Origin: Saccharolobus solfataricus
GTDB lineage: Archaea; Thermoproteota; Thermoprotei_A; Sulfolobales; Sulfolobaceae
NCBI RefSeq assembly: GCF_900079115.1
Contig: NZ_LT549890.1
Span: forward strand, 1,410,001-1,442,000
Length of the DNA: 32,000 nucleotides
Direction of reading: 5' to 3'
A program made the translations under genes and the position numbers. Below are positions 7,395-32,000 of the stretch, piece by piece; within the stretch, counting starts at the first letter, position 1; each line of letters starts with the position of its first letter. The notes under the pieces were generated by a model. The model made no database searches, had not been told where the DNA came from, and was given only the letters and a program-made list of their open reading frames with translations.

Positions 7395-7490
7395 ACTAAT
7401 CTCTTTAACGCTCAGACTATTAACTTTATTTTTTTTTCTTTTCTCTCTCCTCTTACGAAGGTTGGGGAGAGTTTAGAAAAGACCTTTCTC

Positions 7491-7570
7491 TAGCATTTTG
7501 GAAAAGTTCTTAGACTATGATCTAGTGGTATATCCTTTGCCTATAAGCCATAAACTTTCTGAAAGCACTA
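7491..7570. mobile_element. 80-bp MITE (size class of Sulfolobus SM1) flanked by a TC dinucleotide duplication
   Basis: It is near-identical to the 79-bp copy at 13750-13828. The ends are imperfectly inverted (TAGCATTTTGGAAAAG / CTTTCTGAAAGCACTA), and TC occurs at 7489-7490 and 7571-7572. Confidence 0.6.
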
Positions 7571-7619: not shown

Positions 7620-9058
7620 CAGTGGTGTTTCACCAAATTATTTCATTTGAAAGATATAATATTAGTCCTTTCAAAAAGAGATTGATATAGAGAAAAACAA
7701 TAAAATTATTATGAAACATAACATGTTAAGGTAATTTGCAAAAAATATAGCGTACAATTCTAATAATAAGAGGAGAATTCTGAATTTTTCTCACGTGGTG
7801 AAAACGACGTGCATAGTCTCCTCTGAACACCGAGAAAGTTAGAGAAGCTTGACGAATGAATCGAAGGACAAAACCTTCTTACACGTGGACTTGAAGTTAA
7901 AGAGAAGATGATTCACTAGATTCCACGCAGAATCCAGAACCGTGTAATAGAGGAACAAGAAGATCTTGTTACTCAACTTCCTAACATACCTTATCCTTGC
8001 CTTCCTAACCTTAAAACCCTCCTCAACCTGCCACCTCAACCTATAGAGTTCAGCCAGTTCATAGGGATCTCCCTCGAAGTTCGTCACGAACATAAAGTGC
8101 CTCGGCTTTCCCTTAACGTAAACCACATCGTAATAATAAAGCCCTTCAAATTTCAAGACCCTATACGCAACGTAAACCTTGTCCTTAACCTCGTATCTCT
8201 TCTCAACTAATGGAACGTTAGATAGTTCCTTGAATCCCTTCAAGTTCGACTTTCCTCTCACAATGGTCTTCACGGGCATTTCCTTGATGACCCCTAGGTT
8301 CAAGAATCCGGCGTCAGCTACAACGTAATCTATTTCCATGTATTGGCTTACTTCCCTCACGCTCCTGAGTAGGAACTGTGATGGACTGTCGCTTCTCAAA
8401 TCTGCTACCTCCACTAGGAGGGGTAACCTTAAGGGATATACGAGGTCCAAGGATCTCATCTTTACTCCTTTTCTCTTCCAGTTGTAGAGTAGAAAGCCCT
8501 CTGCTTTTTCTTGTTCCTTTTCTCCCACGGTTAATCCGGTCTCATCTACAGCGACTACGTTGATCTCTCCCTTTACTTCTCTGTAGATTGGGTAGAACTT
8601 GAAGGTTCTCTGACCTTTACTAATTACTTTCTCGCCTCGTCTTACTACCTTCAAGTAGTATTTTCCTCTGTTTCCGGTTAGCAAGGATGGTGCTGCTTTC
8701 ACTATTTCCGGGTCTAGATCTTGAGAGATAACGTTAATATTGTTTGTTGCTAAATTTATAGCGAGGGACTTCAGCTCCGTTTTGGATACTTGTATGGTTT
8801 GCATAACGGAGTTATGGAGTCCCTCGCTTTAACCTTTTCTTGTTCATCTCGTCCTTCCACCTACTTTCCTCTATTGATAATACTAGACAAATGGTATTAC
8901 TCTTTATATATAAACTCGTTTTCTGTTAGTTTCTTCAACAAATATGAAAATTTTTTGCTTCTTGTGTTGAAATAAGCCGATTTTTCTAACTCCGCTCTGA
9001 TATTTTTCTCTTCCATAGAAATTGTATCATTTTGAGTAAAATTGGTGAAACACCACTG
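7620..9058 (-). mobile_element. ISC1439 copy 1 (exactly 1439 bp)
   Basis: Terminal inverted repeats are CAGTGGTGTTTCACCAA and its complement. The 9-bp TSD AAGTGTTAA sits at 7611-7619 and 9059-9067. It is ~99% identical to the copy at 15004-16442. Confidence 0.9.
7839..8804 (-). CDS. ISC1439 transposase (DDE type)
   Basis: 321-aa ORF fills the element. It is identical to the other copy except at codons 4-7 and codon 17. Confidence 0.85.
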   Translation of the reverse strand: MQTIQVSKTELKSLAINLATNNINVISQDLDPEIVKAAPSLLTGNRGKYYLKVVRRGEKVISKGQRTFKFYPIYREVKGEINVVAVDETGLTVGEKEQEKAEGFLLYNWKRKGVKMRSLDLVYPLRLPLLVEVADLRSDSPSQFLLRSVREVSQYMEIDYVVADAGFLNLGVIKEMPVKTIVRGKSNLKGFKELSNVPLVEKRYEVKDKVYVAYRVLKFEGLYYYDVVYVKGKPRHFMFVTNFEGDPYELAELYRLRWQVEEGFKVRKARIRYVRKLSNKIFLFLYYTVLDSAWNLVNHLLFNFKSTCKKVLSFDSFVKLL

Positions 9059-9372
9059 AAGTGTTAACGTTTTATCAACTCCCATGATGATTGTCTTTAT
9101 GGAAAACGTCTTCATGGAGTTGGTACAAAAATATTTAAAAAAGGGGAAGACAGCTGTAGGCTATCGCGTAGACGTTAAGCACTTAATGTCAGTTGGTATT
9201 GGTAAGGAAATAAGAGTGAAAGCAACGCTAAAAGAGGTTAATGGTAGAAGGTTTAAGTTCGAGGTTGAAGCCTTTTACGAAGACAAGAAAATTGGTGAGG
9301 GATTTCATGAGAGGGTAATAATTTATGAGGTTGAATTCATGAAGAGGGTTTTATAATATTTCTCAGAACCTC

Positions 9373-9503
9373 TGCTTTGTGGACTTGTTGAATTTTTAGC
9401 AAACGTTTAAGATATCTTACAGGCCTAAATTGTAGACCTTGAGATTAATTGAAAGGAAGATAATAGCGGTTTAGTTAGAAATATTCAACAGATCAACTAA
9501 GCA
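9373..9503 (+). mobile_element. 131-bp MITE (size class of Sulfolobus SM3) with a 9-bp TSD
   Basis: Ends are TGCTTTGTGGAC... and ...ATCAACTAAGCA, which are imperfect inverted repeats. A perfect direct repeat CAGAACCTC sits at 9364-9372 and 9504-9512. Confidence 0.75.
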
Positions 9504-12386: not shown

Positions 12387-13253
12387 CTACTTGATCACAT
12401 GAGAAGCTATAACTTCTACCCCTTCCTCTTCAAGTTTCTTCTTCACTTTCTCATCCACAAAGTTCGCCACAACAAATATCTTTATCTTCTTATTCTTATA
12501 CTTTGCAGAGAATAGCTTTTTTCTAACAATGATTTGATCATATGTCCCCTTATCCGCAAAATTCTTTATCTCAAACACATAAACATACTCATTCGTTTCA
12601 TAAAAGTCTACCTCAAACACTTTACCCTTCTCTATTACTCCCTCATCATCAACTATCTTACCGTGAGCCACCTTCTTAGGGTCAACACTATGAAGTTCTA
12701 AAGATTTTCTATAAAGCTTTAGCATGGCCTTCTCCATGCCCTTTCCTGCCCTATTAGTAAAACTACCCAACTCTATCGAAAGTTTCTTAACTTCCCGACC
12801 CAATCTAAGCACAGCCTTTTGTAATGCTTCAATGGCTTCTCCCTGCTTTTTGACCGCCTCTTGTAAGGACTGAATAGCCTCGGTATGCTTATTCACAGTC
12901 TCTTGTAAGGATTGAGTAACTTGCTGTAGTGCTTGAATAGCCTTCCCTTGTTCTTTGACCGCCTCTTGTAAGGACTGAATAGCCTCGGTATGCTTATTCA
13001 CAGTCTCTTGTAAGGATTGAGTAACTTGCTGTAGTGCTTGAATAGCCTTCCCTTGTTCTTTGACCGCCTCTTGTAAGGACTGAATAGCCTCGGTATGCTT
13101 ATTCACAGTCTCTTGTAAAGCCCTTATAGCTTCACTGTTTTCTTCTAATTTCTTTATCACAATTTCGTCTTTAAGCCTGCCGTAAATTTTTTCAGCTAAT
13201 ACTGAAAGCAACTGAGGATTATTAAGTAACTCGTCAATAATTTTCTCACTCAT
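12387..13253 (-). CDS. Coiled-coil protein with a C-terminal PD-(D/E)XK-like domain (DUF3782/DUF1626-like architecture)
   Basis: 288 aa. The 35-aa unit QETVNKHTEAIQSLQEAVKEQGKAIQALQQVTQSL occurs twice exactly and a third time diverged. The C-terminal FEVDFYE...VFEIKNF fits a D...E-x-K nuclease-fold motif. Confidence 0.8.
   Translation of the reverse strand: MSEKIIDELLNNPQLLSVLAEKIYGRLKDEIVIKKLEENSEAIRALQETVNKHTEAIQSLQEAVKEQGKAIQALQQVTQSLQETVNKHTEAIQSLQEAVKEQGKAIQALQQVTQSLQETVNKHTEAIQSLQEAVKKQGEAIEALQKAVLRLGREVKKLSIELGSFTNRAGKGMEKAMLKLYRKSLELHSVDPKKVAHGKIVDDEGVIEKGKVFEVDFYETNEYVYVFEIKNFADKGTYDQIIVRKKLFSAKYKNKKIKIFVVANFVDEKVKKKLEEEGVEVIASHVIK
12851..13118. repeat. 105-bp tandem repeat, about 2.5 units, inside the coiled-coil gene
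   Basis: tgaccgcctcttgtaaggactg recurs at 12851, 12956 and 13061 (period 105 = 35 codons). Units 2 and 3 are identical at the protein level. Confidence 0.95.
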
Positions 13254-13657: not shown

Positions 13658-13867
13658 TGCTTTGTTGAATACTTCAATTTTCTAAGAGGTTAAGCTCATC
13701 AATTTTTCTTAAATTCGAAATCAAGCGTTGATTTAAAAGTAAACTCCACTAGTATTTTGGAAAAGTTCTTAGACTATAATCTAGTGGTATATCCTTTGCC
13801 TAAAGCTATAAACTTTCTGAAAGCACTAACGTTATCTCAGATAAAAATTGAAGAGATCCACAAAGCA
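13658..13867 (+). mobile_element. ~129-bp MITE (TGCTTTGT...ACAAAGCA ends) carrying a nested 79-bp MITE, with a 9-bp TSD
   Basis: TATACGTAA occurs at 13649-13657 and 13868-13876. The copy at 26550-26679 is its uninterrupted paralogue. Confidence 0.75.
13750..13828. mobile_element. 79-bp MITE (SM1 size) nested inside the 13658-13867 MITE
   Basis: It is absent from the paralogous position in the 26550-26679 copy (aaaatccac|gttaactc). AC flanks it at 13748-13749 and 13829-13830. It is near-identical to 7491-7570. Confidence 0.65.
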
Positions 13868-14855: not shown

Positions 14856-15003
14856 GAGTGCGATTCATGTGTCTTCTGCGAATTGTAATTTGTAAATAAT
14901 ACGTTGTAAAAATGTTAACATTTGGTAAGCATGTTTCTCTACTAATTAGTTATCTTCGTTTAGTTAATTTCGTAGCTTCTTTGAAATAAAGTGAGTTCGC
15001 AAT
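14856..15003 (-). mobile_element. Larger part of a ~165-bp MITE (SM4 size class) split by ISC1439 copy 2
   Basis: It aligns in reverse complement to 26047-26183. The rest of the element is at 16443-16468. Confidence 0.55.
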
Positions 15004-16442
15004 CAGTGGTGTTTCACCAATTTTACTCAAAATGATACAATTTCTATGGAAGAGAAAAATATCAGAGCGGAGTTAGAAAAATCGGCTTATTTCAACACAA
15101 GAAGCAAAAAATTTTCATATTTGTTGAAGAAACTAACAGAAAACGAGTTTATATATAAAGAGTAATACCATTTGTCTAGTATTATCAATAGAGGAAAGTA
15201 GGTGGAAGGACGAGATGAACAAGAAAAGGTTAAAGCGAGGGACTCCATAACTCCGTTATGCAAACCATGATATTACCCAAAACGGAGCTGAAGTCCCTCG
15301 CTATAACTTTAGCAACAAACAATATTAACGTTATCTCTCAAGATCTAGACCCGGAAATAGTGAAAGCAGCACCATCCTTGCTAACCGGAAACAGAGGAAA
15401 ATACTACTTGAAGGTAGTAAGACGAGGCGAGAAAGTAATTAGTAAAGGTCAGAGAACCTTCAAGTTCTACCCAATCTACAGAGAAGTAAAGGGAGAGATC
15501 AACGTAGTCGCTGTAGATGAGACCGGATTAACCGTGGGAGAAAAGGAACAAGAAAAAGCAGAGGGCTTTCTACTCTACAACTGGAAGAGAAAAGGAGTAA
15601 AGATGAGATCCTTGGACCTCGTATATCCCTTAAGGTTACCCCTCCTAGTGGAGGTAGCAGATTTGAGAAGCGACAGTCCATCACAGTTCCTACTCAGGAG
15701 CGTGAGGGAAGTAAGCCAATACATGGAAATAGATTACGTTGTAGCTGACGCCGGATTCTTGAACCTAGGGGTCATCAAGGAAATGCCCGTGAAGACCATT
15801 GTGAGAGGAAAGTCGAACTTGAAGGGATTCAAGGAACTATCTAACGTTCCATTAGTTGAGAAGAGATACGAGGTTAAGGACAAGGTTTACGTTGCGTATA
15901 GGGTCTTGAAATTTGAAGGGCTTTATTATTACGATGTGGTTTACGTTAAGGGAAAGCCGAGGCACTTTATGTTCGTGACGAACTTCGAGGGAGATCCCTA
16001 TGAACTGGCTGAACTCTATAGGTTGAGGTGGCAGGTTGAGGAGGGTTTCAAGGTTAGGAAGGCAAGGATAAGGTATGTTAGGAAGTTGAGTAATAAGATC
16101 TTCTTGTTCCTCTATTACACGGTTCTGGATTCTGCGTGGAATCTAGTGAATCATCTTCTCTTTAACTTCAAGTCCACGTGTAAGAAGGTTTTGTCCTTCG
16201 ATTCATTCGTCAAGCTTCTCTAACTTTCTCGGTGTTCAGAGGAGACTATGCACGTCGTTTTCACCACGTGAGAAAAATTCAGAATTCTCCTCTTATTATT
16301 AGAATTGTACGCTATATTTTTTGCAAATTACCTTAACATGTTATGTTTCATAATAATTTTATTGTTTTTCTCTATATCAATCTCTTTTTGAAAGGACTAA
16401 TATTATATCTTTCAAATGAAATAATTTGGTGAAACACCACTG
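15004..16442 (+). mobile_element. ISC1439 copy 2 (exactly 1439 bp), inverted relative to copy 1
   Basis: It has the same terminal repeats as copy 1. The 9-bp TSD GTTCGCAAT sits at 14995-15003 and 16443-16451. Confidence 0.9.
15258..16223 (+). CDS. ISC1439 transposase
   Basis: 321 aa. See copy 1. Confidence 0.85.
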   Translation: MQTMILPKTELKSLAITLATNNINVISQDLDPEIVKAAPSLLTGNRGKYYLKVVRRGEKVISKGQRTFKFYPIYREVKGEINVVAVDETGLTVGEKEQEKAEGFLLYNWKRKGVKMRSLDLVYPLRLPLLVEVADLRSDSPSQFLLRSVREVSQYMEIDYVVADAGFLNLGVIKEMPVKTIVRGKSNLKGFKELSNVPLVEKRYEVKDKVYVAYRVLKFEGLYYYDVVYVKGKPRHFMFVTNFEGDPYELAELYRLRWQVEEGFKVRKARIRYVRKLSNKIFLFLYYTVLDSAWNLVNHLLFNFKSTCKKVLSFDSFVKLL

Positions 16443-21970: not shown

Positions 21971-22302
21971 ACGTTATACCCTTTGGACTTGCTTTCCACG
22001 GAGTCGTTCCACAAGCACGCGGAGACCAGAACTCTCGATACCTCCTCAGCCTTTCTTCCCTTGAAGCTCAACATGGAAAGTAATTTATACCCTACTTGTT
22101 GTATATTATTTTGGTGGGGAAGACCAGGTGTTATCACCTTGTCTTCACCACGTGATAATACCGGCTTCCTCACCTTAAATCTTTCTTCAATTAGTTGCGT
22201 TCTTGTTAAAGCTATAAATTCTATTATTTTTCAGAATCTGATATTACCCAACCAAAATTATTTTTTGTAAAATGATTTTGGGTCTACCGTTTAGGGCGGT
22301 GA

Positions 22303-22408
22303 GGAGGTCAGATTATGACCATTATATATTCTATATTCACAAACATATAAGCACAGGAGGTCAGATTATGACCATTATATATTCTATATTCACAAACATA
22401 TAAGCACA
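22303..22408 (+). repeat. Perfect 53-bp tandem duplication (2 units)
   Basis: The unit ggaggtcagattatgaccattatatattctatattcacaaacatataagcaca occurs at 22303-22355 and 22356-22408 with no mismatch. Confidence 0.95.
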
Positions 22409-22601
22409 AAGGAAAGTTCAATTTCTGAACCGTATTAAATAACGTAACGGCAGTTATCTTATTTTTCCTTAGTAATAATGGAAAAACGTCAATATCTAGA
22501 AAGCTTTTTGATGCAATTCTGGAGCGATATATATCAAGATCTCTGACCCTGCATCATAACTACTAGAAAGATTTATATATTACTTACACCTAAAATTTAC
22601 T

Positions 22602-22835
22602 ATGGAAAGAATGATATCTAAGGTCACCAGGAACTTTCAAGTCACAATTCCTTATGAGATTAGAAAAGTGCTAGGAATAAAAGAGGGAGACTATATTGAG
22701 TTCGCAATAGAAAACGGTAAGGTCATGATAAAACCTGTTAGAAAAGTTTGGTCAACTATTAGACTTGGAAGAGAAGTTACAGTGGAGGAGATTGAGGAAA
22801 TCGCAAGTAAGGCCTTTAAAGATGATAGTAGTTGA
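22602..22835 (+). CDS. vapB: AbrB/SpoVT-fold antitoxin (VapB-like)
   Basis: 77 aa. The sequence VTRNFQVTIPYEIRKVLGIKEGDYIEF is a swapped-hairpin AbrB motif. It overlaps the downstream PIN gene. Confidence 0.85.
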   Translation: MERMISKVTRNFQVTIPYEIRKVLGIKEGDYIEFAIENGKVMIKPVRKVWSTIRLGREVTVEEIEEIASKAFKDDSS

Positions 22836-23211
22836 TACGAATGTCCTAATTTACGCCACTCTTGAAGACAGCGAATTTCATACTCAAAGTCTAGAGATAA
22901 TTGAGGGATCAGACATAATAGTTCCCCAAATTGTAGTCTTCGAATACATAAAGGTACTATCTGAAATTGTACAGAACTTAGATTTCATAAAAACAAAAAT
23001 CTCAGAGTTAAACAATTTTGTCGTTGTTTGCGAAGACCTTAATACTATAGCACTAGCGTTGAGACTATTAGCAGAGTTAAAACTTTCACTGAAAGACATT
23101 AACGATATGATAATCTTAACCGCAGCAATTAAGACAAACAGCTCCATAGCCACATTTGATCAGAAGCTTAGAAAGATTGCAGACAAGAAGGGAGTTAAAG
23201 TTTTGCCTTGA
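22822..23211 (+). CDS. vapC: PIN-domain toxin (VapC-like)
   Basis: I prefer the ATG at 22822 (MIVVDTNVLIYA...), a 14-bp overlap with vapB. The track's 22765 start would add 19 residues read through vapB. The conserved acidic residues (VDTN, FEY, ILTAA, TFD) fit a PIN domain. Confidence 0.85.
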   Translation: MIVVDTNVLIYATLEDSEFHTQSLEIIEGSDIIVPQIVVFEYIKVLSEIVQNLDFIKTKISELNNFVVVCEDLNTIALALRLLAELKLSLKDINDMIILTAAIKTNSSIATFDQKLRKIADKKGVKVLP

Positions 23212-23237
23212 TTATTTTTTAAAGTAACAGTCATTAA

Positions 23238-23364
23238 GCTTTGTGGGATTGTTGAATATTCATAAAGGGTTATGAGATGTCAATCTGAATTGTGCATCTT
23301 ATCATTAATTGAAAGGAAGATAATAGTGGTTTAGTGTAAAAATATTCAACAGATCAACTAAGCA
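23238..23364 (+). mobile_element. ~127-bp MITE, same family as 9373-9503
   Basis: gctttgtgggattgttgaat...attaattgaaaggaagataatagtggtttag...caacagatcaactaagca aligns along its whole length with the 9373 copy. No TSD is detectable. Confidence 0.7.
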
Positions 23365-23372
23365 CAAGGATC

Positions 23373-24414
23373 GAGTCTGGGACAAATTAGTATAATGGGT
23401 TTCCAAATTTATATAGCATTTCGGGATTTTTAATCTAGCGCTTTAGACCACAGTAGATCGTGAATCGCGACCCTCGCTAAGACCGTCAAGTGGATCCTCT
23501 CTTCCCTGACCTTATTTATGATCCACCCTGTCCTCCTTTTAATGAAGATCAGAGCCTCTCACGCTTAAAATACTCCTCCAAATACTCCAGTGGGTTCTTC
23601 ATGAACTTCAATATCATCTCCCTCCACCTTTTCCCTCCCTTGATCGTAGCGTTAGGGTATCAAGTTCTCAGAATCAGGGAAGTCATCCAGTATAGACTTG
23701 CTATAGTACTTGTCAGCCCTCAAGGAGTCAACCTTTACACCAAGATCCCTCAGGACCTCGAGGACCATCTCATAAGCCTCCCTCTCACTCTTAAGCGAAT
23801 AACCGTAAGCGACAATCAAGTTACTACCCAAGTCAAAGATGAAGAAGGAGTACGCGAACTCCTTCCTTCACATCTTCCCCAGACTTCTCCCTTTCACTCC
23901 TTTAATGCTTGGTTACTACTAGGGAATAACCTGTCCTGTCCATGACCACCTTGAGGCCACTAGCGGTCTTTGAGAGTAGGTTGTAGAGGATGACGAAGAT
24001 GTGGGGTGGGAGTATAGTCTCTCTACTGTCTTGTGGCTTATCTCCTCCTTCGTTAGGTTCAGTAGTAATGCTAGTTCTGCGGTTTCCCTGTTGGATAAGC
24101 CTAGATATTCCTTGATTATCAGTATGTATGCCTTCTCTTGTGGGGTTAGTTTGCTTTTTCTCCCTTGTTCTTTCTTGATCTTGACGAACTTTGCCTCCTC
24201 TAAGTCTTAACTCTCGACCGAATCTTCTTAATCTGGCTAACCTCTCTTCTTCGCTCTCCTTATTGTTCTCTATCTTACTGAGCCTACTTTCCTTGTGCAA
24301 CTTGATCAAGTCCTCTATTGACTCCTTGAAATTGTCGAAGTCTTTCTGAGTTAACTTCTTATTCATGTGTTCATGATACAAAATAAGGGGTATCTAAAGT
24401 TTTTGTCCCAGAGT
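23373..24414 (-). mobile_element. Degenerate ~1.04-kb IS (size class of ISC1048/ISC1058)
   Basis: Inverted termini are GAGTCTGGGACAAA and TTTGTCCCAGAGT. Near-identical 10-bp direct repeats flank it: CACAAGGATC (23363-23372) and CACAGGGATC (24415-24424). Confidence 0.65.
23490..24381 (-). pseudogene. Transposase gene broken by several frameshifts and stops
   Basis: Three segments lie in different frames. They are MNKKLTQKDFDNF..., KLTPQEKAYILIIKEYLGLSNRETAELALLLNLTKEEISHKTVERL (HTH-like), and VVMDRTGYSL...FAYSFFIFDLGSNLIVAYGY...LRADKYYS... Confidence 0.65.
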
Positions 24415-24505
24415 CACAGGGATCAAAAAACTTTTTATAAAAATGACATGCTGTTGCTAATAACAAATTTATAGAGGAATACGGAATTAATTATATTCAA
24501 AAGAA

Positions 24506-25771
24506 TTAGCTTCTCCTTATGAGCAGTATAACCAAACCTGCTAGGAAAGAGAATAGTGCCATCATGTAGACTCCATCTATAAAAGATCCAGTGAATGACT
24601 TCAGAAATCCCACTACTATAGGTCCCACAATTCCTCCTAAGTTACCTACTGCATTTATAAGACCTATTGCTGCTGCAGCTGCATCACCATGTAAAAACTT
24701 CTGTGGAACTGCCCAAAATGTAGCTATAAAACTGTATATTCCAATTGCAGCTATTGCGAAGAAGATAAACGATAGAACAAATATATTCTGCGTTAATGCA
24801 CTTAAACCCAAGCCGACACCAGCAATTATAAATACTATGGAGGTAATAGATCTGTGCCTTTGGGTTCGATCAGCTAAATGCGCTATAAATATTAGTGAAA
24901 TTGAAGCTATTACATATGGTATTACCGATAAGAAGCTTGCAACAGTCGCGTTAACTTTTCCAAATGAACTTATAATAGATGGAAGCCAAATAGAATAACC
25001 ATAAAGACTTGTTACTCCTAGAAAATATACAATAGCAAGGATTATTACATCCCTATTAGTTAACGCCTTGGTCCATTTAACGTTTACCTTTTCCGTTTCT
25101 TCCTCTTTAAACGCATTTTGAATAGCAATTTTTTCCTCATTACTTAACCATTTTGCATCTTTAGGAAAGTCAGTTAGAATAAAATATGCTAATATCCCAC
25201 CAATAATTGCTAATATACCTTCATATATGAAAAGGTACCTCCAACCAGGGTAATCGCCATATGTTGCAAATATGGCACCAGCTATTAGTCCACCAAATAT
25301 TCCAGAAACGGGAATTGCTGCAGTGAAAAAACTATTAGCTGTAGCTCTCTCCGGCTTTAAAAACCACAGACTAAGATAAAACATAACGCCAGCAAAGAAA
25401 GGTCCTTCAGCTATTCCAAGTAAAAATCTTAATACGTAAACTTGTGATACCGAGGAAACAAATCCTGTCAATATGGTAATTATTCCCCAGACCGTAAATG
25501 CTGCTAGAAATATTTTTCTAACACCATACCTATTGATACCCAAGTTAGAGAAAATTTGAGGAATGAAATACCCTATAAAGAATAGGGATGATGCGAGAGA
25601 AGCAATTATACCAACTTGTCTAGTTGGGACACCTAAATATTGGAACATATGAGCATCTATTGCATATGAAATATTTACTCTGTCTAGGAAGTTTACAATA
25701 TACAGGAAAAAGAGAATTGGAAGGATCCTAAGATATCTTTTATGTCTGGAACTCTCAACAAGGGACTTCAT
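24506..25771 (-). CDS. MFS transporter (anion:cation symporter / phthalate-permease-like)
   Basis: 421 aa with 12 predicted TM helices. LDRVNISYA follows TM1, which is typical of the ACS subfamily. Confidence 0.85.
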
Positions 25772-26020
25772 ATTTTAAAGATTGTTAAAACTGGTTAATA
25801 ATCTTTATGATAGATATAAGTGCTATTCTTAAGTTTAAATTAATATTCTGCTCAAAAGATTTAATTATTTAGAATCTTTTCATGATAATTGCAAAGAGGA
25901 CCATGAGTACTAGAAATTTTTGTAATATTGGTTTAATTGTGAATAATAAATTCTAGTTTCCATAATATTGCTTATATATTCTCTGTTATTTCTAAGTAAA
26001 GCATTGCTTTTCTTGCATCG

Positions 26021-26183
26021 GGGGAATTCAGATACCAATTGTGAACTCACTTTATTTCAAAGAAGCTACTAAATTAACTAAATGAAGACAACTAACTATC
26101 AGAGATGCATGATTACCAATATTAACATTTTTACAGAAAAGTTATTTACAAATTACAATCCATAAAGAAGACTTGAATCACCC
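26021..26183 (+). mobile_element. Intact 163-bp MITE (SM4 size class), paralogue of the copy split by ISC1439
   Basis: It aligns in reverse complement to 14856-15003 plus 16443-16468. The ends are imperfectly inverted (GGGGAATTCAGAT / reverse complement GGGTGATTCAAGT). Confidence 0.55.
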
Positions 26184-26254
26184 TTACCAATTCTAAGGGA
26201 GGAGATTAATAAATATGAAAGATAATTTTTACAAAAATGAAAAGCCTTTAGAGC

Positions 26255-26392
26255 GAGGTCAGTTGTTGAGCCTTTTCCCACTTAACTGTTACGTACTCTC
26301 ATTATCAATTAACCTCAAGGTGTACAGTTTACGTTTGTAATGATCCTTAGATGCTCTCAATAACCCAATAAATCGTCAAACTGTATAAAGAA
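26255..26392 (-). mobile_element. Diverged copy of the ~130-bp MITE family
   Basis: The reverse complement contains ...ttacaaacgtaaactgtacaccttgaggttaattga..., which matches the core of the 9373 copy. The ends are eroded. Confidence 0.35.
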
Positions 26393-26549
26393 TAAAAATA
26401 ATTTTCTCGGTCACTTTTGAATAAGATAGAAATTGCAAACGTTCAATGAGGTTTACGCAGATTAGTAAGATAGTCATTCTCGGTATCAGACACGCTTTGT
26501 CTTTATAGCGGAAATCATAATTATTTACTCTTAAAAAAAGGAATGTAGG

Positions 26550-26679
26550 TGCTTTGTTGAATACTTCAATTTTTTAAGATGCTAAGCTCATCAATTTTTC
26601 TTAAATTCGAAATCAAGCGTTAATTTAAAAGTAAAATCCACGTTAACTCAGATAAAGATTGAAGAGATCCATAAAGCAA
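26550..26679 (+). mobile_element. 130-bp MITE (TGCTTTGT... ...ATAAAGCA), uninterrupted paralogue of 13658-13867, with a 9-bp TSD
   Basis: GAATGTAGG occurs at 26541-26549 and 26680-26688. Confidence 0.7.
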
Positions 26680-26817
26680 GAATGTAGGAGTTTTCTCGTT
26701 ATATTATACTTAACTACCTTATAACAGACGGGGGTTCAAAGGGAGCGGAAAACTTCTCTTTGAGGCGGATCCCTTTGTAGAAAAGTTAAAAATAGGAAAA
26801 TAACGAAATACACATCA

Positions 26818-27993
26818 ATGCCCACCTTAGGGTTTCGCTTCCGTGCATACACTGACGAACAAACCCTTAGGGCGTTAAAGGCCCAGTTGAAGTCAGCGTG
26901 CAAAATCTACAACACCTTAAGGTGGGCAGACATATACTTTTACCAAAGGGATGGGAAAGGACTAACACGAACTGAGTTAAGACAGTTGGCTCTAGATCTG
27001 AGAAAACAAGATGATGAGTATAAGCAACTCTACTCGCAAGTAGTTCAACAAGTAGCTGACCGTTACTACGAAGCTAAGAAGAGGTTCTTTGAAGGTTTAG
27101 CACATTTCCCGAAAGAAAAGAAACCTCACAAGCACTACTCCCTAGTCTATCCCCAGTACGGTTGGAAAATACTTCAAGTTAGAGAAATAAGAAAAGGAAG
27201 CAAGAAGAAACTAATAACGCTTAAACTATCAAATCTTGGTACGTTCAAGGTAATAGTTCACCGAGACTTTCCCCTTGACAAAGTAAAGAGAGTGGTAGTG
27301 AAGCTAACAAGATCTGAGAGGATTTACATCACTTTCGTAGTTGATCACGAATTCCCCAAGTTACCTAACACGGGTAAGGTAGTGGCGATAGATGTTGGTG
27401 TAGAAAAGTTGATCGTAACGTCAGATGGTGAGTATTTTCCTAATTTGAGACCTTACGAGAAAGCGTTATGGAAAGTGAAGCATCTACACAGAGAACTTTC
27501 AAGGAAGAAATTCCTCTCTCATAACTGGTTTAAGGCTAAGGTTAAGCTTGCTAGGGCTTATGAGTATTTGAAGAATCTAAGAACGGATCTTTACATGAAG
27601 TTGGGTAAGTGGTTTGCTGAGCATTATGACGTTGTAGTCATGGAGGGTATTCATGTTAAGCAGTTGATAGGTAAGTCATTAAGGTCTCTGAGGAGGAGAT
27701 TGAGTGACGTCGCGTTCAGCGAGCTTAGAGATTTGATTAAGTATCAGTTGGAAAAATACGGAAAGAAACTCATCCTGGTCAACCCAGCATACACTTCCAA
27801 AACTTGTGCTAAGTGCGGGTACGTAAAAGAAGATCTATCACTTTCTGATCGTGTTTTCGTTTGTCCCAACTGTGGTTGGATTGCAGATCGTGACTATAAT
27901 GCTTCTCTTAACATCTTACGTGGATCGGGGTCGGAGCGACCCTTAGTGTGGAGCTCCGCCCTCTACCAGTACTCTGGCATGGCAGAGCTGTGA
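26818..27993 (+). CDS. tnpB: TnpB (OrfB), apparently intact
   Basis: 391 aa. It has [10 protein letters not shown] (RuvC I), VVVMEGIHV (RuvC II), CAKCG...CPNCG (zinc finger) and [11 protein letters not shown] (RuvC III). Confidence 0.9.
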
Positions 27994-28000
27994 AGCAGGA

Positions 28001-28027
28001 AGCTCCCTCATTTATGAGGGGGTAGCT
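28001..28027 (+). other. Right-end hairpin of the tnpB element (likely part of the omega/reRNA scaffold or a TnpA-type recognition structure)
   Basis: In AGCTCCCTCA-TTTA-TGAGGGGGTAGCT, the inner 6 bp and the outer 4 bp pair, leaving a 3-nt bulge. It lies 8 nt after the tnpB stop. Confidence 0.5.
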
Positions 28028-28030
28028 CAC

Positions 28031-28564
28031 CTATCCTTCGTGAATCTTAACTTTATCAGGGAATAGTTTCATAAATTTTTTTACTTTAGGGCTTATAACT
28101 AATCTACAGTAAGGATTGTACTTATGTTTGTCATAGAAATCGTGATGATAATCCTCTGCCTCGTAAAATACTTCGAAAGGCTTTAGTTCAGTCACAACTT
28201 TCTTTCCTATCCTTTTCTCAACCTCTCTTATCATTTCCTCAGCTATTTTCCTCTGCTCTTCATTATGGTACAATATTATGGACCTATATTGTGTTCCAAC
28301 ATCGTTTCCCTGCCTATTAAGCGTAGTAGGATCGTGAATCTCGAAGAAGATTTCCAGAATTTCCCTATATGAAATAATAGAGGAATCAAAGGTTATCTGA
28401 ACTACCTCCGCATGTCCAGTTGTATCTGTGCACACATCCTCATATGTAGGATTAGGTACGTGACCACCAGAATAGCCTGGCTTAACACTTATCACTCCCT
28501 TAACTCTCTTATATACTGCTTCTGTGCACCAAAAGCAACCTCCTCCTAATGTGGCAACTTCCAT
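28031..28564 (-). CDS. msrA: Peptide methionine-S-sulfoxide reductase
   Basis: 177 aa with the GGGCFWC active-site motif near the N-terminus and family-typical GHAEVV and QGND(V)GTQYRS motifs. Confidence 0.92.
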
Positions 28565-29005
28565 AATAATACTAACGAAAACTAACCTTTTAACTTATGT
28601 TAAAAAAATCTAATGTGGCAGTTCTTCTTCTTTCACCATTGAAAAAGGAAGAGAGGGTTAGAAGGAAAAACGCTACCATACCGACATTTTCTGAAGATAA
28701 GATAAATTATAAAATATTCAAGCAGATTCGGTGTAAGATATATAATATTTAGATTATACATTCTTTAATATTTATAACTAGCGTAGTCTAGTGGAGGAGA
28801 ATTTACGTAAATATTTAAGGCTTAAGGAATTTAATGAAAATCACGTAAAGTGTTACAGCATTTCAGACAAAAGATCAGAAGTTCTTCCTCATATGCATTA
28901 GTAATGAGATATACTTATTGTTGAAACTGTTGAGGTTTAAGCTTTATAGGAATGTTTACATAAAGTCTTACTATTGACAAGAACATGAACAAAATTAATA
29001 AAGTA

Positions 29006-29132
29006 TGCTTAGTTGATATATTGGATATTTTTAAACTGGACCTATGTTATTTTCCTTTCAAAAATCTCAAGGAGTTAATTTCCGTTTACAAATCTCTTAA
29101 ACCGTTGTGAAAACTCAAGAACTCACAAAGCA
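29006..29132 (-). mobile_element. 127-bp MITE, same family as 9373-9503
   Basis: tgcttagttgatatattggatattt...ttcctttcaaaaatctcaagg...actcacaaagca aligns end to end with the reverse complement of the 9373 copy. No TSD is detectable. Confidence 0.65.
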
Positions 29133-29461
29133 TCTCCGACAATACGATATTGATACTTGATGAGGCACAGAATCTTAAGCAAGGGACAATTCACCTACTC
29201 TCAGTCTTTTACGAAAACTCTTAAACTATTACTCTACACTTCTCAATTTCTTAAATTAAATTATAGGACTCCAGTGAATTTGATGGATAGTAATGTGATA
29301 ATAAATGCAAGCATTTCAAATGGACGATAATGTTATCAGTGTTTATGACCATACCCTAATACGTAAATTCTGTTTAAGAGAGCTTACTTATGAGAAGTAA
29401 TTCCCCTACTATTATTAATTTCACTATTAGATAAGACTGAATTAGAACGCTGGTGGAACGA

Positions 29462-30145
29462 CTACGATTTTTCTTCTTCTTTTTCCTTCCCCACTAACAA
29501 TTTTATGATCAAGTTTAGATCATTCTTTAGCTCATTGAATTTTGAATCCATATCTGAACGTAAGTCGTTAAACCTGGTATCCACGTGCTCAAATTGCTTA
29601 TCTACGTACTCTTTAAACTTAACAAATTGAACATCAGTGTAAGCCCTTGACTCTTCGAATTTCTTGTCTGTATATGTTCTTAGTTCTTGAAACTTAGTGT
29701 CAACGTAGTTTCTAAGGTCTTCAACTTTCTTATTAGTTTCCTCGAATTTCTTGTCTGTGTAGACTCTAGTTTCCTCGAATTTGTTATCGACATAGTGTCT
29801 GAGATCCTCAACTTTCTTATTAGTTTCCTCGAATTTCTTGTCTGTGTACGCTCTCGACTCGTCAAACTTCCTCTCCGTATAGTCTCTAAGGCCTTTTATG
29901 TCTTCCTTGACACTTATGATTTCAGCCTTAGTATCATCAAATCTCTTATCAACGTAACTCTTGAGGTCGTCAAACTTCTTATTCATATCTTGCCTTAAGT
30001 CATCAGTTCTTTTACTGTTCAAGTACATCATTAGAAATAGGTAATCTTGCTCAGATAACTTCTTACCCTGCTTTGATTTCTCCACTAAACTCTTAGCGTA
30101 CTCAGTAACAGCGTCACTAAGCATTTGTATGAAAACGTCAGCCAT
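29462..30145 (-). CDS. Coiled-coil protein built from Y-x-D-x-K-F-E-E repeats (11- and 18-residue spacing)
   Basis: 227 aa. Phe positions in the repeat region are spaced 11, 18, 11, 18, 11, 11, 11, 7 and 11 residues apart. The 29-aa super-repeat TDKKFEETNKKVEDLR(H/N)YVD(N/T)KF(E/Q)E(T/L)R(V/T)Y occurs twice in tandem. Confidence 0.75.
   Translation of the reverse strand: MADVFIQMLSDAVTEYAKSLVEKSKQGKKLSEQDYLFLMMYLNSKRTDDLRQDMNKKFDDLKSYVDKRFDDTKAEIISVKEDIKGLRDYTERKFDESRAYTDKKFEETNKKVEDLRHYVDNKFEETRVYTDKKFEETNKKVEDLRNYVDTKFQELRTYTDKKFEESRAYTDVQFVKFKEYVDKQFEHVDTRFNDLRSDMDSKFNELKNDLNLIIKLLVGKEKEEEKS
29701..29874. repeat. 87-bp tandem repeat (2 units) inside the coiled-coil gene
   Basis: A 41-nt stretch (tcaactttcttattagtttcctcgaatttcttgtctgtgta) is identical at 29721 and 29808. 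Confidence 0.9.
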
Positions 30146-30395
30146 GAATATAAGTTCGAAAAACTGCTATATAAGTATAGAGATCAGCGAAAGTAACAAC
30201 TTTAGGGGGTTCGCGTTGAGGCTATTCCTTATAGAGGTTTGAATTTCAAATGAATTCGATACCAGTTCATAAAATGTGGATAACACTGAAATATAAACGT
30301 TTATGGAGAAATTATACATCGTTGAGTTGAATCAAAGAACATTCTAGGATTCCAACAGTTATAGTTAAAATCTATTTTTGACACTTTATTATAAC

Positions 30396-32000
30396 ATGAG
30401 GGAAATTCTCAAAGTCAGTGAGATCAGAAGATTGATTAGGAGAAATAAGGCATTGATTGGAGGTCTCCCCTTTAGTGGTAAGACTACGATGATAAAAAAG
30501 GCTTGTGAGGGTTATTGCGAAGAGAACGGAATACAATTTATCGAACTACCTAAGAAGTTTGTCAGTATTGAGGAGTTAAACCAATGGAAGGAAAAGGTTA
30601 AAGGAGTGGAAAAGGCTATTATAGAAGGGAGAAGTTATGTAATAGAACTTTTATTAGGTAAGGTTTCTATAGCTGATACGCCATCCCTTCAGTCCTTGAA
30701 CTTGGATTTAACGGGAAAGGTAGTTAGCATGAAAAGTTTAGATGCAATTAAAAAGATATATAATAGCGGTATAAGGGACGATAAAGCTGTTTCAAAAATT
30801 TTGATGTATTCCACTGTTGCCGTGCCTAATTATTATACTGTTATACCCAAGCTAGTTAACGAGGGCATTGAGCTATATAACCAAGGTAAGCTGGACAAAA
30901 CACTGGAGTTTGTCTTAGGGTTAAAGAGGTTGTATTATTCTTTTCCTAAGGGAGATGTAAGCGGGGAGGATAGTGTTATATTTGCCTTGCAACAAGTTGT
31001 ACCGAGGGATATAGATTTTAAGACTGCGTGGGATGAGTTAAGCGAAACTTGGAAGGAGTTGGTATATTACAGACTCGATTCTGTTCTCAAGCTTTTGCCT
31101 GGTTCTGCAGAGAGAATGATTAATCAGAAAGAGATAAAACCCATGGGAGATAAGGTAAACATTTCTGATATAGACCCCTTTTTCGTTGGCTTAGCTGAAG
31201 AAGGAGTGTCAATACTCCTTAGCGGAGAGAATCTTTGTATTGTTGGTCCTATACGATCTGGTAAGTCTACTTTAGCAAACTACGTTTACTCGATGGCTAA
31301 TTTAGGGAATATTGAGGTTGTAGACTATAATAATTATGACTTACTTGGACTGAAGCAGAAACTATCTTCGGAAAGTAAAAGGTTTATTGCAGTCCTAACA
31401 GAAGATATTTACATTTCCCTACCTTTAACCTGTAAAGTAATAAACTTAAATACTTATATTAATGACTTCATCAAGTATCAATATTTAAAGGAAAACAAAT
31501 ATATAAGGGTCGGCACCTATGAGATACCTCGTTATTACTATAGTCTCTATAAATTAAAGTACAATATGAGTGATGACCAAATTATTGATGAATATAAGTC
31601 AGATATGACTAAATATATTATAAACACAATTTTCGGAAACAATAAAGAACTGATAGATAATTACCTCCCTCTTCTAGTTCTAGGCAAGAGATATTTGCCT
31701 TTTCCTCCAAGGGTAAGTGAGATAATACTTAAGTACTTTAATAGGCAAATAGACGAGACCTTTGTTAAATGGTTCTCTGCATTCGATTTTATGGGTTATA
31801 AAATAGAGGAAAACAAGGAAATAAAAGCTAAGGAGAATGAGGTTCTTCGAAAAGTTAGGGATGAGCTCATCAAAGAGGTTAAGGAGAAGAAGCTCGAAGA
31901 TGACTTATTGAAAGTATTTTTTCACAATCTAATGGCCTTTAAGGTCGCTATCGCCAATTTAAATGGTTTTATAGCTACTGCACAAGGTAGATATTCTCCT
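30396..32000 (+). CDS. Large uncharacterised protein with two tandem P-loop modules. It is 3'-partial (open at the window edge) and absent from the supplied ORF track
   Basis: I translated from the ATG at 30396 and found no stop through 32000 (535 codons). Walker A motifs are GGLPFSGKT (residues 22-30) and GPIRSGKST (284-292), with a Walker-B-like IAVLTED at 331-337. Motifs recur in both halves. Confidence 0.75.
   Translation, partial: MREILKVSEIRRLIRRNKALIGGLPFSGKTTMIKKACEGYCEENGIQFIELPKKFVSIEELNQWKEKVKGVEKAIIEGRSYVIELLLGKVSIADTPSLQSLNLDLTGKVVSMKSLDAIKKIYNSGIRDDKAVSKILMYSTVAVPNYYTVIPKLVNEGIELYNQGKLDKTLEFVLGLKRLYYSFPKGDVSGEDSVIFALQQVVPRDIDFKTAWDELSETWKELVYYRLDSVLKLLPGSAERMINQKEIKPMGDKVNISDIDPFFVGLAEEGVSILLSGENLCIVGPIRSGKSTLANYVYSMANLGNIEVVDYNNYDLLGLKQKLSSESKRFIAVLTEDIYISLPLTCKVINLNTYINDFIKYQYLKENKYIRVGTYEIPRYYYSLYKLKYNMSDDQIIDEYKSDMTKYIINTIFGNNKELIDNYLPLLVLGKRYLPFPPRVSEIILKYFNRQIDETFVKWFSAFDFMGYKIEENKEIKAKENEVLRKVRDELIKEVKEKKLEDDLLKVFFHNLMAFKVAIANLNGFIATAQGRYSP

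Follow-up and report, generated by a model that had tools for sequence, protein, structure and literature searches.

The window, which is the whole 32,000-nt stretch of Saccharolobus solfataricus DNA analysed here (contig NZ_LT549890.1, positions 1410001-1442000), ends inside a long open reading frame (ORF) on the forward strand. From the ATG at 30396 to the window end at 32000 this frame comprises 535 codons and no stop. It was absent from the ORF list of the window because that list excludes ORFs leaving the window, as the first-pass annotation of this DNA had assumed. A profile search retrieved a 1033-residue S. solfataricus protein (P0040), residues 1-535 of which are identical to the window translation. 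The 90% cluster of this protein includes AAK41724.1, ‘hypothetical protein SSO1500’ of strain P2 (UniProt Q97Y47), so the gene is already annotated. The frame covers the N-terminal half of the uncharacterised SSO1500, which has 1033 residues when counted from the conserved ATG.

The remainder of the gene could be read from locus L007 (CP160827.2), which matches window 22396-32000 base for base. The SSO1500 gene is 3102 nt long there, which places the end of the ORF at the window-equivalent position 33497. Extending the frame, as had been proposed, thus gives 1033 residues in an identical S. solfataricus genome, with neither stop nor frameshift. As the ORF is intact over this length, a pseudogene in the window strain is ruled out. 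In the P2 annotation, SSO1500 has 1039 residues and starts at TTG 30378, six codons upstream of ATG 30396. Homologues begin with MREI, MRKI or MRRI at the position of ATG 30396, which identifies this ATG as the conserved start. The A/T-rich sequence TTAAAATC lies at about 30366-30373, its centre near -27 from ATG 30396, a position that would fit a putative leaderless archaeal promoter.

SSO1500 belongs to an uncurated family of proteins of about 1000 residues, restricted to the Sulfolobaceae, in which two P-loop NTPase domains are combined with an alpha-solenoid at the C-terminus; this assignment is secure. The features of the locus and of the protein are as follows (NBD, nucleotide-binding domain; pLDDT, predicted local distance difference test score).

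30146-30395, no strand: divergent intergenic region of 250 bp, read directly from the sequence
30396-32000, + strand: N-terminal 535 codons of SSO1500, a stop-free frame with a translation identical to P0040 residues 1-535
30396-30728, + strand: P-loop domain 1 (NBD1), residues 1-111, with the order alpha0, beta1, P-loop, alpha1, beta2, alpha2, beta3 (Walker B), alpha3, beta4 in the AlphaFold2 model (pLDDT 83-93)
30459-30485, + strand: Walker A motif 1, GGLPFSGKT, residues 22-30, seen in the sequence and shared by 15 of the 19 members
30609-30632, + strand: Walker B strand 1, EKAIIEGR, residues 72-79, E77 being the acidic residue (modelled strand at 74-77)
30729-31145, + strand: helical domain A, residues 112-250, all-alpha except for a beta-hairpin at 140-149 (model and family alignment)
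31176-31511, + strand: P-loop domain 2 (NBD2), residues 261-372, with the element order of NBD1 plus alpha4 (model)
31245-31271, + strand: Walker A motif 2, GPIRSGKST, residues 284-292, seen in the sequence; G284 and K290 invariant in 19 of 19 members
31323-31328, + strand: D310-Y311 at the end of beta2 of NBD2, family motif VDY[HN], invariant in the family
31380-31406, + strand: Walker B strand 2, RFIAVLTED, residues 329-337, family consensus hhhLTx[DE] (modelled strand at 329-334)
31512-31940, + strand: helical domain B, residues 373-515, all-alpha, with the motifs Y423-x-P425-L426, Y433, P437 and W459-F460
Residues about 516-600: linker, of lower confidence and poorly ordered in the model
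Residues about 600-1033, beyond the window: alpha-solenoid of about 430 residues, all-alpha, pLDDT mostly 80-95 in the model

The full-length AlphaFold2 model was computed from a 19-sequence alignment and reached a pLDDT of 87.2 and a predicted template modelling score of 0.71; with only four close homologues aligned, the pLDDT was 48. The pattern [AG]xxxxGK[ST] occurs exactly twice in the 1033 residues, as GGLPFSGKT and GPIRSGKST, precisely where the two P-loops had been reported. In front of each Walker A sequence (GxxxxGK[ST] at 23-30 and 284-291) lies a predicted strand (at 18-22 and 280-283). Two strands of Walker B type follow, one (74-77) ending in E77 and the other (329-334) followed by an acidic residue at 337. 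SSO1500 has a first P-loop domain with intact Walker A and Walker B and a second P-loop domain with a conserved site. The C-terminal part is all-alpha, and Foldseek matches it to solenoids of importin-beta, transportin and tetratricopeptide repeat type.

The SSO1500 family and its two P-loop cores

In an exhaustive HMMER search, 1.84 billion representatives yielded only 12 clusters at 50% identity, nearly all of 940-1150 residues. The named members come exclusively from Sulfolobaceae, of the genera Saccharolobus, Sulfurisphaera, Stygiolobus, Sulfolobus, Acidianus and Metallosphaera. Among the hosts are S. solfataricus, S. shibatae, S. caldissimus, S. islandicus, Sulfurisphaera ohwakuensis and Stygiolobus caldivivus, as well as Acidianus brierleyi, Sulfolobus tengchongensis, Sulfolobus sp. 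E11-6, Metallosphaera javensis and an uncultured Sulfolobaceae archaeon. Metagenomes contributed eight family loci among 241 million records. No relative was found in a scan of IMG/VR viral contigs, nor in plasmids or phages by tblastn. A scan of genome contigs with a single pattern from the family alignment returned two loci, which is an undercount; the corresponding scan with the window peptide returned none.

Identity between genera is 22-30%. Conservation is unevenly distributed along the protein: mean identity is 0.38-0.40 in the N-terminus versus 0.18-0.27 in the C-terminal part, the solenoid being least conserved. A codon-level comparison gave ratios of non-synonymous to synonymous substitution rates (dN/dS) of 0.09-0.27, which indicates purifying selection on the gene, with dN about three times higher in the C-terminal part. 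Conservation peaks in helical domain A, with a mean pairwise identity of 0.40 and the invariant residues Y138, I150-P151, L153, E156, L166, W212, L215, Y225, D228 and L234-P235-G236.

In NBD2, G284, K290, D310-Y311, L334 and an acidic residue (D/E) at 337 are conserved throughout the 19 members, and T335 is nearly invariant. G289 of the second Walker A motif is replaced by Ala in five members (Saccharolobus, Stygiolobus and close relatives) and by Arg in one. In NBD1, G78 of the Walker B strand is invariant and R79 is found in 18 of 19 members. The GKT of NBD1 is lost in P0029, P0031, P0032 and P0033, and E77 is changed to V or I in exactly these four. This joint loss indicates that the two motifs form one functional site, and it marks the NBD1 site as probably active in some lineages, including that of SSO1500, and probably dead in another. 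In most members the C-terminal end (P0040 residues ~1021-1033, outside the window) is a hydrophobic tail, ...[KR]x[FY][IVL]ASLIL[FY][IVL], modelled with high confidence as the final solenoid helix; LIPFIxxWHxxG replaces it in the clade without the first Walker A motif.

Interrupted alleles occur within species. In the S. ohwakuensis type strain the gene is split into parts of 629 and 394 residues, and another strain has it intact with 1028 residues. S. solfataricus HFC64 has parts of 375 and 587 residues. Many strains of S. islandicus carry remnants of 303-314 residues, as opposed to the intact 1017 residues of HVE10/4-type genomes.

The first-pass annotation could assign SSO1500 to no named family, and domain searches bear this out. 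With the single sequence, all matches in Pfam, NCBIfam, PADLOC and PDB sequences were sub-threshold and confined to the P-loop, and across the 19 members the models of Pfam, NCBIfam and PADLOC extend over the P-loop at most. A search of PDB sequences with 16-sequence profiles of each module returned RecA concatemers, NSF and ABC proteins, again for the P-loop only. Among Pfam models, nSTAND3 (PF20720) gives the most frequent and the strongest matches: it hits 12 of the 19 members (best E 1.5e-8), in NBD1 or NBD2 depending on the member. AAA_18 and AAA_14 match residues 279-322 below threshold; AAA, AAA_14, AAA_18 and AAA_22 are all under their cut-offs for SSO1500, and no conserved polar or Arg position follows the Walker B strand of NBD2 among the family members. 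The only model of PADLOC-DB 2.0 with matches is mad8 (10 of 19 members, best E 1.7e-9), over profile positions 25-86 of 314, which is the P-loop region. Given that this match is limited to the P-loop and that no partner genes were found, SSO1500 does not correspond to a known anti-phage system of PADLOC-DB 2.0.

Two further assignments were considered and rejected. The ABC signature [LIVMFY]SGG[QERK] is absent from the 1033 residues; ABC_tran reaches 14.6 of the 25 bits required, and NCBIfam ABC models reach 11-15 bits where more than 250 are needed. For a helicase, both domains have the Walker A motif, and helicase motifs were not found.

Three pairs of recurring motifs had led to the proposal that the frame arose by tandem duplication of a ~260-270-residue module comprising an NTPase and a helical domain, so that the two halves would be homologous end to end. 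The two halves do share a gross order of alpha0, beta1, P-loop, alpha1, beta2, alpha2, Walker-B strand and all-alpha domain, and nSTAND3 is the best Pfam match for each of the two P-loop domains, in different members. As single sequences, they show no significant similarity: BLASTP of residues 1-262 versus 263-535 gave E = 5, Smith-Waterman alignment scored 45 versus 38 +/- 6.7 in shuffled sequences (70 of 500 shuffles reach 45), and a collinear alignment anchored on the P-loops gave z = 1.2. Profile comparison by hhalign with the 19-sequence profiles gave E-values of 2e-6 to 1e-7 (1e-7 for the cores alone) and probabilities of 89-94%. This similarity covers only ~65 columns, from alpha0/beta1 via the P-loop to the Walker-B strand, and 28 columns in another run. 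NBD2 is the best and longest match of NBD1 among the controls. The NBD2 core, however, matches an unrelated ABC ATPase encoded at one of the loci retrieved with a score of 45, equal to that with NBD1.

Beyond the cores the resemblance ends. Helical domains A and B align with a probability of 0.2%. The in-register invariant pairs Y138/Y423 and P151/P437 are weak (hhalign E = 0.31), and the paired residues lie in a beta-hairpin in the first module and in a helix in the second. One of the three motif pairs stands, as KAIIEGR... and RFIAVLTED... are the two Walker-B strands, in register within about three residues in the profile-profile alignment. The other two are not conserved in the family. IPRYYYSLYKL (378-388), the partner of VPNYYTVIPKL, lies in an indel-rich stretch missing from several members, and in the pair LGLKRLYYSFP and LGKRYLPFPP the module-1 side is not conserved except for K177; both pairs are chance. 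With the resemblance confined to the ~65-residue P-loop core, duplication of a whole module is unsupported, and we regard it as improbable. The two P-loop cores are of one general type and may descend from a single ancestral core, and the helical domains that follow them look unrelated.

Neighbouring genes, repeats and mobile elements

The gene divergent from SSO1500 encodes a coiled-coil repeat protein.

29462-30145, - strand: gene for a 227-residue coiled-coil repeat protein, 250 bp from SSO1500; not a conserved partner

Its position, orientation and repeats are as described earlier: three 87-nt tandem repeats at 29652-29912 encode protein repeats of ~29 residues. Borderline matches were obtained to DUF5382 (24.5 bits, cut-off 25), to apolipoprotein-like repeats and to the sll1863 stress-protein family. 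The exact sequence is absent from the protein collection searched, and a 227-residue gene is called at the same spot in the S. solfataricus loci L006-L009.

If the two genes formed a system with a bidirectional promoter and a joint function, the 227-residue protein should accompany SSO1500 homologues elsewhere. They are adjacent, 250 bp apart, in each S. solfataricus strain examined, and the A. brierleyi homologue also has a coiled-coil/PD-(D/E)XK-type gene just downstream. The latter is not homologous to the 227-residue protein, and neighbours of the SSO1500 family differ in every genus. In tblastn searches (E <= 0.01) of the flanks (6-10 kb, shorter at contig ends), the 227-residue protein was matched only in the four S. 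solfataricus loci and was absent from all 21 other loci, which represent at least nine other species or lineages. The proposed co-occurrence with the coiled-coil gene thus breaks down outside S. solfataricus. This absence effectively refutes a partnership, and a two-gene system is extremely unlikely.

Across the 17 loci for which gene context was read, no conserved neighbour of the family gene was found. The 258-residue ORFs beside three distant homologues were considered as partners and rejected, being unrelated to each other. Homologues are surrounded by TnpB and other insertion sequence (IS) elements, PIN-MazE and HEPN-NT toxin-antitoxin pairs, PaREP1, AAA_14-DUF4143 ATPases and DEAD helicases; in S. 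tengchongensis the homologue lies amid Cas6, Csx1 and Csa3 genes, and in some genomes it stands beside plain metabolic genes. About 3 kb downstream of the S. ohwakuensis homologue (L001 15116-17001), a 170-residue ORF overlaps the start of a 458-residue P-loop protein with an nSTAND3 match at the cut-off (29.8 bits) and a weak ATPase_2 match. This separate STAND-like gene pair is part of the same island and lies beside CcdA-like, HEPN/NT and PIN/MazE genes.

In the window itself, neighbouring genes exactly match MsrA (AAK41726), the ISC1316 TnpB (AAK41727) and a major facilitator superfamily transporter (AAK41728). TnpB genes of ISC1316 (IS200/IS605 OrfB) flank the segment of msrA, the coiled-coil gene and SSO1500: the upstream copy at 26818-27993 (+ strand) is identical to AAK41727, and the other is located just past the window end (L007 13130-14386).

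The first-pass description had been of AT-rich DNA littered with miniature inverted-repeat transposable elements (MITEs). Short dispersed repeats and copies of IS elements do occur in the window, and the AT-richness amounts to 30-44% GC near SSO1500 (bins of 500 nt), which is locally nothing unusual. The dispersed intergenic repeats are 51-92 nt long, 82-96% identical and direct or inverted, consistent with MITE-like elements. Copies were found at 13658-13802, 26550-26641, 7490-7543, 9425-9475, 23285-23364 and 29006-29061, the last between msrA and the coiled-coil gene. Two inverted 1440-nt copies (7620-9059 and 15003-16442, 99% identical) each contain a 321-residue ORF (7839-8804, - strand; 15258-16223, + strand). 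They look like IS copies, as the counterpart of the 321-residue protein in the related locus L006 matches DDE_Tnp_1, and they bracket about 5.9 kb in a composite-transposon-like arrangement. Two tandem repeats were also seen: a perfect intergenic duplication of 53 nt at 22302-22407 (two copies, 100% identical), and three 105-nt repeats at 12820-13134 (100, 91 and 82% identity to the first) within the ORF 12387-13253 (- strand), corresponding to a 35-residue protein repeat.

Possible function of SSO1500

We tentatively propose, with a probability of about 0.45, that SSO1500 is a STAND/AAA+-like switch, a single-gene sensor NTPase that probably acts in conflict with viruses or mobile elements. 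A conflict role is suggested by a gene that stands alone, is patchily distributed, often pseudogenised and associated with islands, and has a fast-evolving C-terminus. The first-pass annotation had seen here the kind of context in which NTPase-based conflict systems are found. This was a reasonable guess, for which architecture, islands, pseudogenisation and the variable C-terminus provide somewhat better circumstantial support; the role itself is still something that we infer.

A conjectural mechanism can be outlined. The fast-evolving C-terminal solenoid would bind a ligand, most plausibly a viral or other mobile-element protein, and ligand binding would relieve auto-inhibition. NBD2, with its universally conserved site, might then bind or hydrolyse a nucleoside triphosphate, leading to a conformational change or oligomerisation. 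The N-terminal module, NBD1 with helical domain A, could serve as the output or as a second regulatory site; NBD1 would be catalytically competent in the SSO1500 lineage and degenerate in one clade.

SSO1500 shares with STAND proteins a C-terminal solenoid, which in these is a sensor domain. The nucleotide-binding and oligomerisation module of STAND proteins consists of an NBD, a helical domain and a winged-helix domain, with a conserved sensor-1 Arg and GxP-type motifs. In SSO1500 a helical domain follows each NBD, and helical domain A has a beta-hairpin. The conserved motifs IP(150-151)xL and Y-x-P(425)-L lie 73 and 88 residues past the Walker B acids, a spacing that may be GxP-like, and beyond beta4 of NBD2 no residue is conserved. 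The N-terminus of SSO1500 has a second P-loop module where STAND and Avs proteins would carry the effector. Foldseek comparison of the whole chain with the PDB listed dynein motor domains (E 4e-5), the EfAvs5 SIR2-STAND protein (E 4e-3, probability 0.80), SAMD9 and importin-beta-type solenoids; comparison with BFVD gave nothing below 1e-3.

Among the known systems nearest to SSO1500 are the Avs5 defence proteins, with nSTAND3 between the effector and C-terminal helical repeats (bioRxiv 10.1101/2025.07.08.663546). SSO1500, like Avs5 (e.g. EfAvs5 SIR2-STAND, PDB 9jap), has nSTAND3 as its best Pfam core match, is a large single polypeptide in which the NTPase is followed by helical domains and C-terminal all-alpha repeats, is encoded by a stand-alone gene in variable genome regions and is most variable at its C-terminus. 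In contrast to Avs5, SSO1500 has two P-loop domains in series rather than one, lacks SIR2 or another known effector, matches nSTAND3 only sub-threshold and along only about half of the profile, and belongs to a family found only in Sulfolobaceae; 9jap_A aligns with a TM-score of 0.13. The human antiviral STAND-like proteins SAMD9/SAMD9L (PDB 9zjs; Foldseek E 4.7e-3, probability 0.66) likewise are large multidomain P-loop NTPases followed by helical repeats, but SSO1500 lacks their SAM, AlbA, SIR2 and OB domains and has no detectable sequence similarity to them (TM-score 0.14). ATPase_2 (PF01637) and AAA_14-DUF4143 proteins, archaeal ATPases that are abundant in Sulfolobales, resemble SSO1500 in the P-loop, have the same host organisms and are frequently encoded next to the family gene within its islands. 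They differ in having about 400-460 residues, a single P-loop and a winged-helix/DUF4143 tail; their models match SSO1500 sub-threshold, and in hhalign either NBD scores lower against them than NBD1 against NBD2.

A number of observations weigh against a STAND-like conflict sensor. The nSTAND3 match of the window protein (residues 12-63) reaches 22.6 bits, or 22.0 for the full-length protein, with a cut-off of 27.2. It covers profile positions of about 9-83 of 155, about the first half, and NBD2 of the relatives matches positions 9-83 likewise. Five of the eight relatives scanned exceed 27.2 as whole-protein sums, with no single domain match passing. No effector domain (nuclease, SIR2, protease, TIR etc.) was detected in the 19 members by Pfam, PADLOC or NCBIfam, and two NBDs in series are atypical for STAND proteins. 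Residues 341-380, after the Walker B strand of NBD2, are the least conserved part of the N-terminal half, so that a sensor-1 or arginine-finger residue is not evident. TM-scores to the PDB structures listed are very low (0.09-0.22), so that SSO1500 resembles STAND and AAA+ proteins locally and in architecture but not globally. Sulfolobales are so rich in IS elements and toxin-antitoxin genes that an ‘island’ context is weak evidence. Finally, SSO1500 is named in no paper of the searchable literature.

The absence of an effector domain would fit the main rival, a cellular ATP-driven scaffold or remodeller without a part in defence, in which the solenoid would hold host cargo in the manner of importin or HEAT repeats and the NTPases would form a tandem AAA-like engine of dynein, midasin or NSF type. 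Dynein motor domains are the top Foldseek matches, solenoids of the importin-beta family are also listed, NSF/Sec18 D1 P-loops are among the PDB sequence matches of NBD2, and the gene is under purifying selection. With tandem AAA+ proteins (dynein motor domain; NSF/Sec18 D1-D2), SSO1500 shares consecutive alpha/beta P-loop domains with alpha0 before and a helical subdomain after each, and a pattern of one conserved nucleotide site and a second that is degenerate in part of the family. Yet the TM-score to dynein is about 0.10. SSO1500 has just two modules with four- to five-strand cores and gives no evidence of a ring, and neither a conserved sensor-1 or arginine finger nor an AAA Pfam model at threshold is seen. 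Patchy distribution, repeated pseudogenisation within species, extreme divergence between genera and a gene with neither a conserved position nor a partner are not what a cellular remodeller would lead one to expect. We consider this explanation unlikely, though the strongest of the rivals.

The same frequency of truncated alleles might point to decaying cargo of mobile elements that has no current function in the host. SSO1500 has a TnpB gene on either side, one about 2.4 kb upstream (26818-27993) and the other immediately downstream, and DDE transposases adjoin the homologues in S. shibatae, Sulfolobus sp. E11-6 and S. ohwakuensis. Decay is hard to reconcile with intact ORFs of 940-1150 residues across six genera and with the dN/dS values given above. 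Moreover, no copies were found in plasmids, phages or viral contigs, and no two loci have flanking element genes in common. Decaying cargo is therefore very unlikely.

Sulfolobales are the main model for archaeal virology. To our knowledge, little is established experimentally about innate non-CRISPR defence in this order, and we know of no characterised STAND/NLR-type sensor in it. Should SSO1500 have no connection with defence, it would still be an uncharacterised lineage-specific ATPase without a Pfam model, worth curating and of limited general interest. As a conflict sensor, it is a concrete candidate that can be tested in the tractable S. islandicus and S. solfataricus, owing to its two nucleotide sites, one universal and one lost in a clade, and its fast-evolving solenoid. 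The family is compact and confidently modelled, and natural intact and truncated alleles exist for comparison. The SSO1500 family may be an unusual archaeal variant of the STAND-type NTPases. It is rather doubtful, but conceivable, that it represents an undescribed, Sulfolobaceae-specific class of NLR/STAND-like immune sensors in which an N-terminal P-loop module with its helical domain replaces the nuclease, SIR2 or TIR effector. If so, these proteins would follow an NTPase-as-effector or dual-switch logic with no known counterpart among bacterial Avs and eukaryotic NLR proteins.

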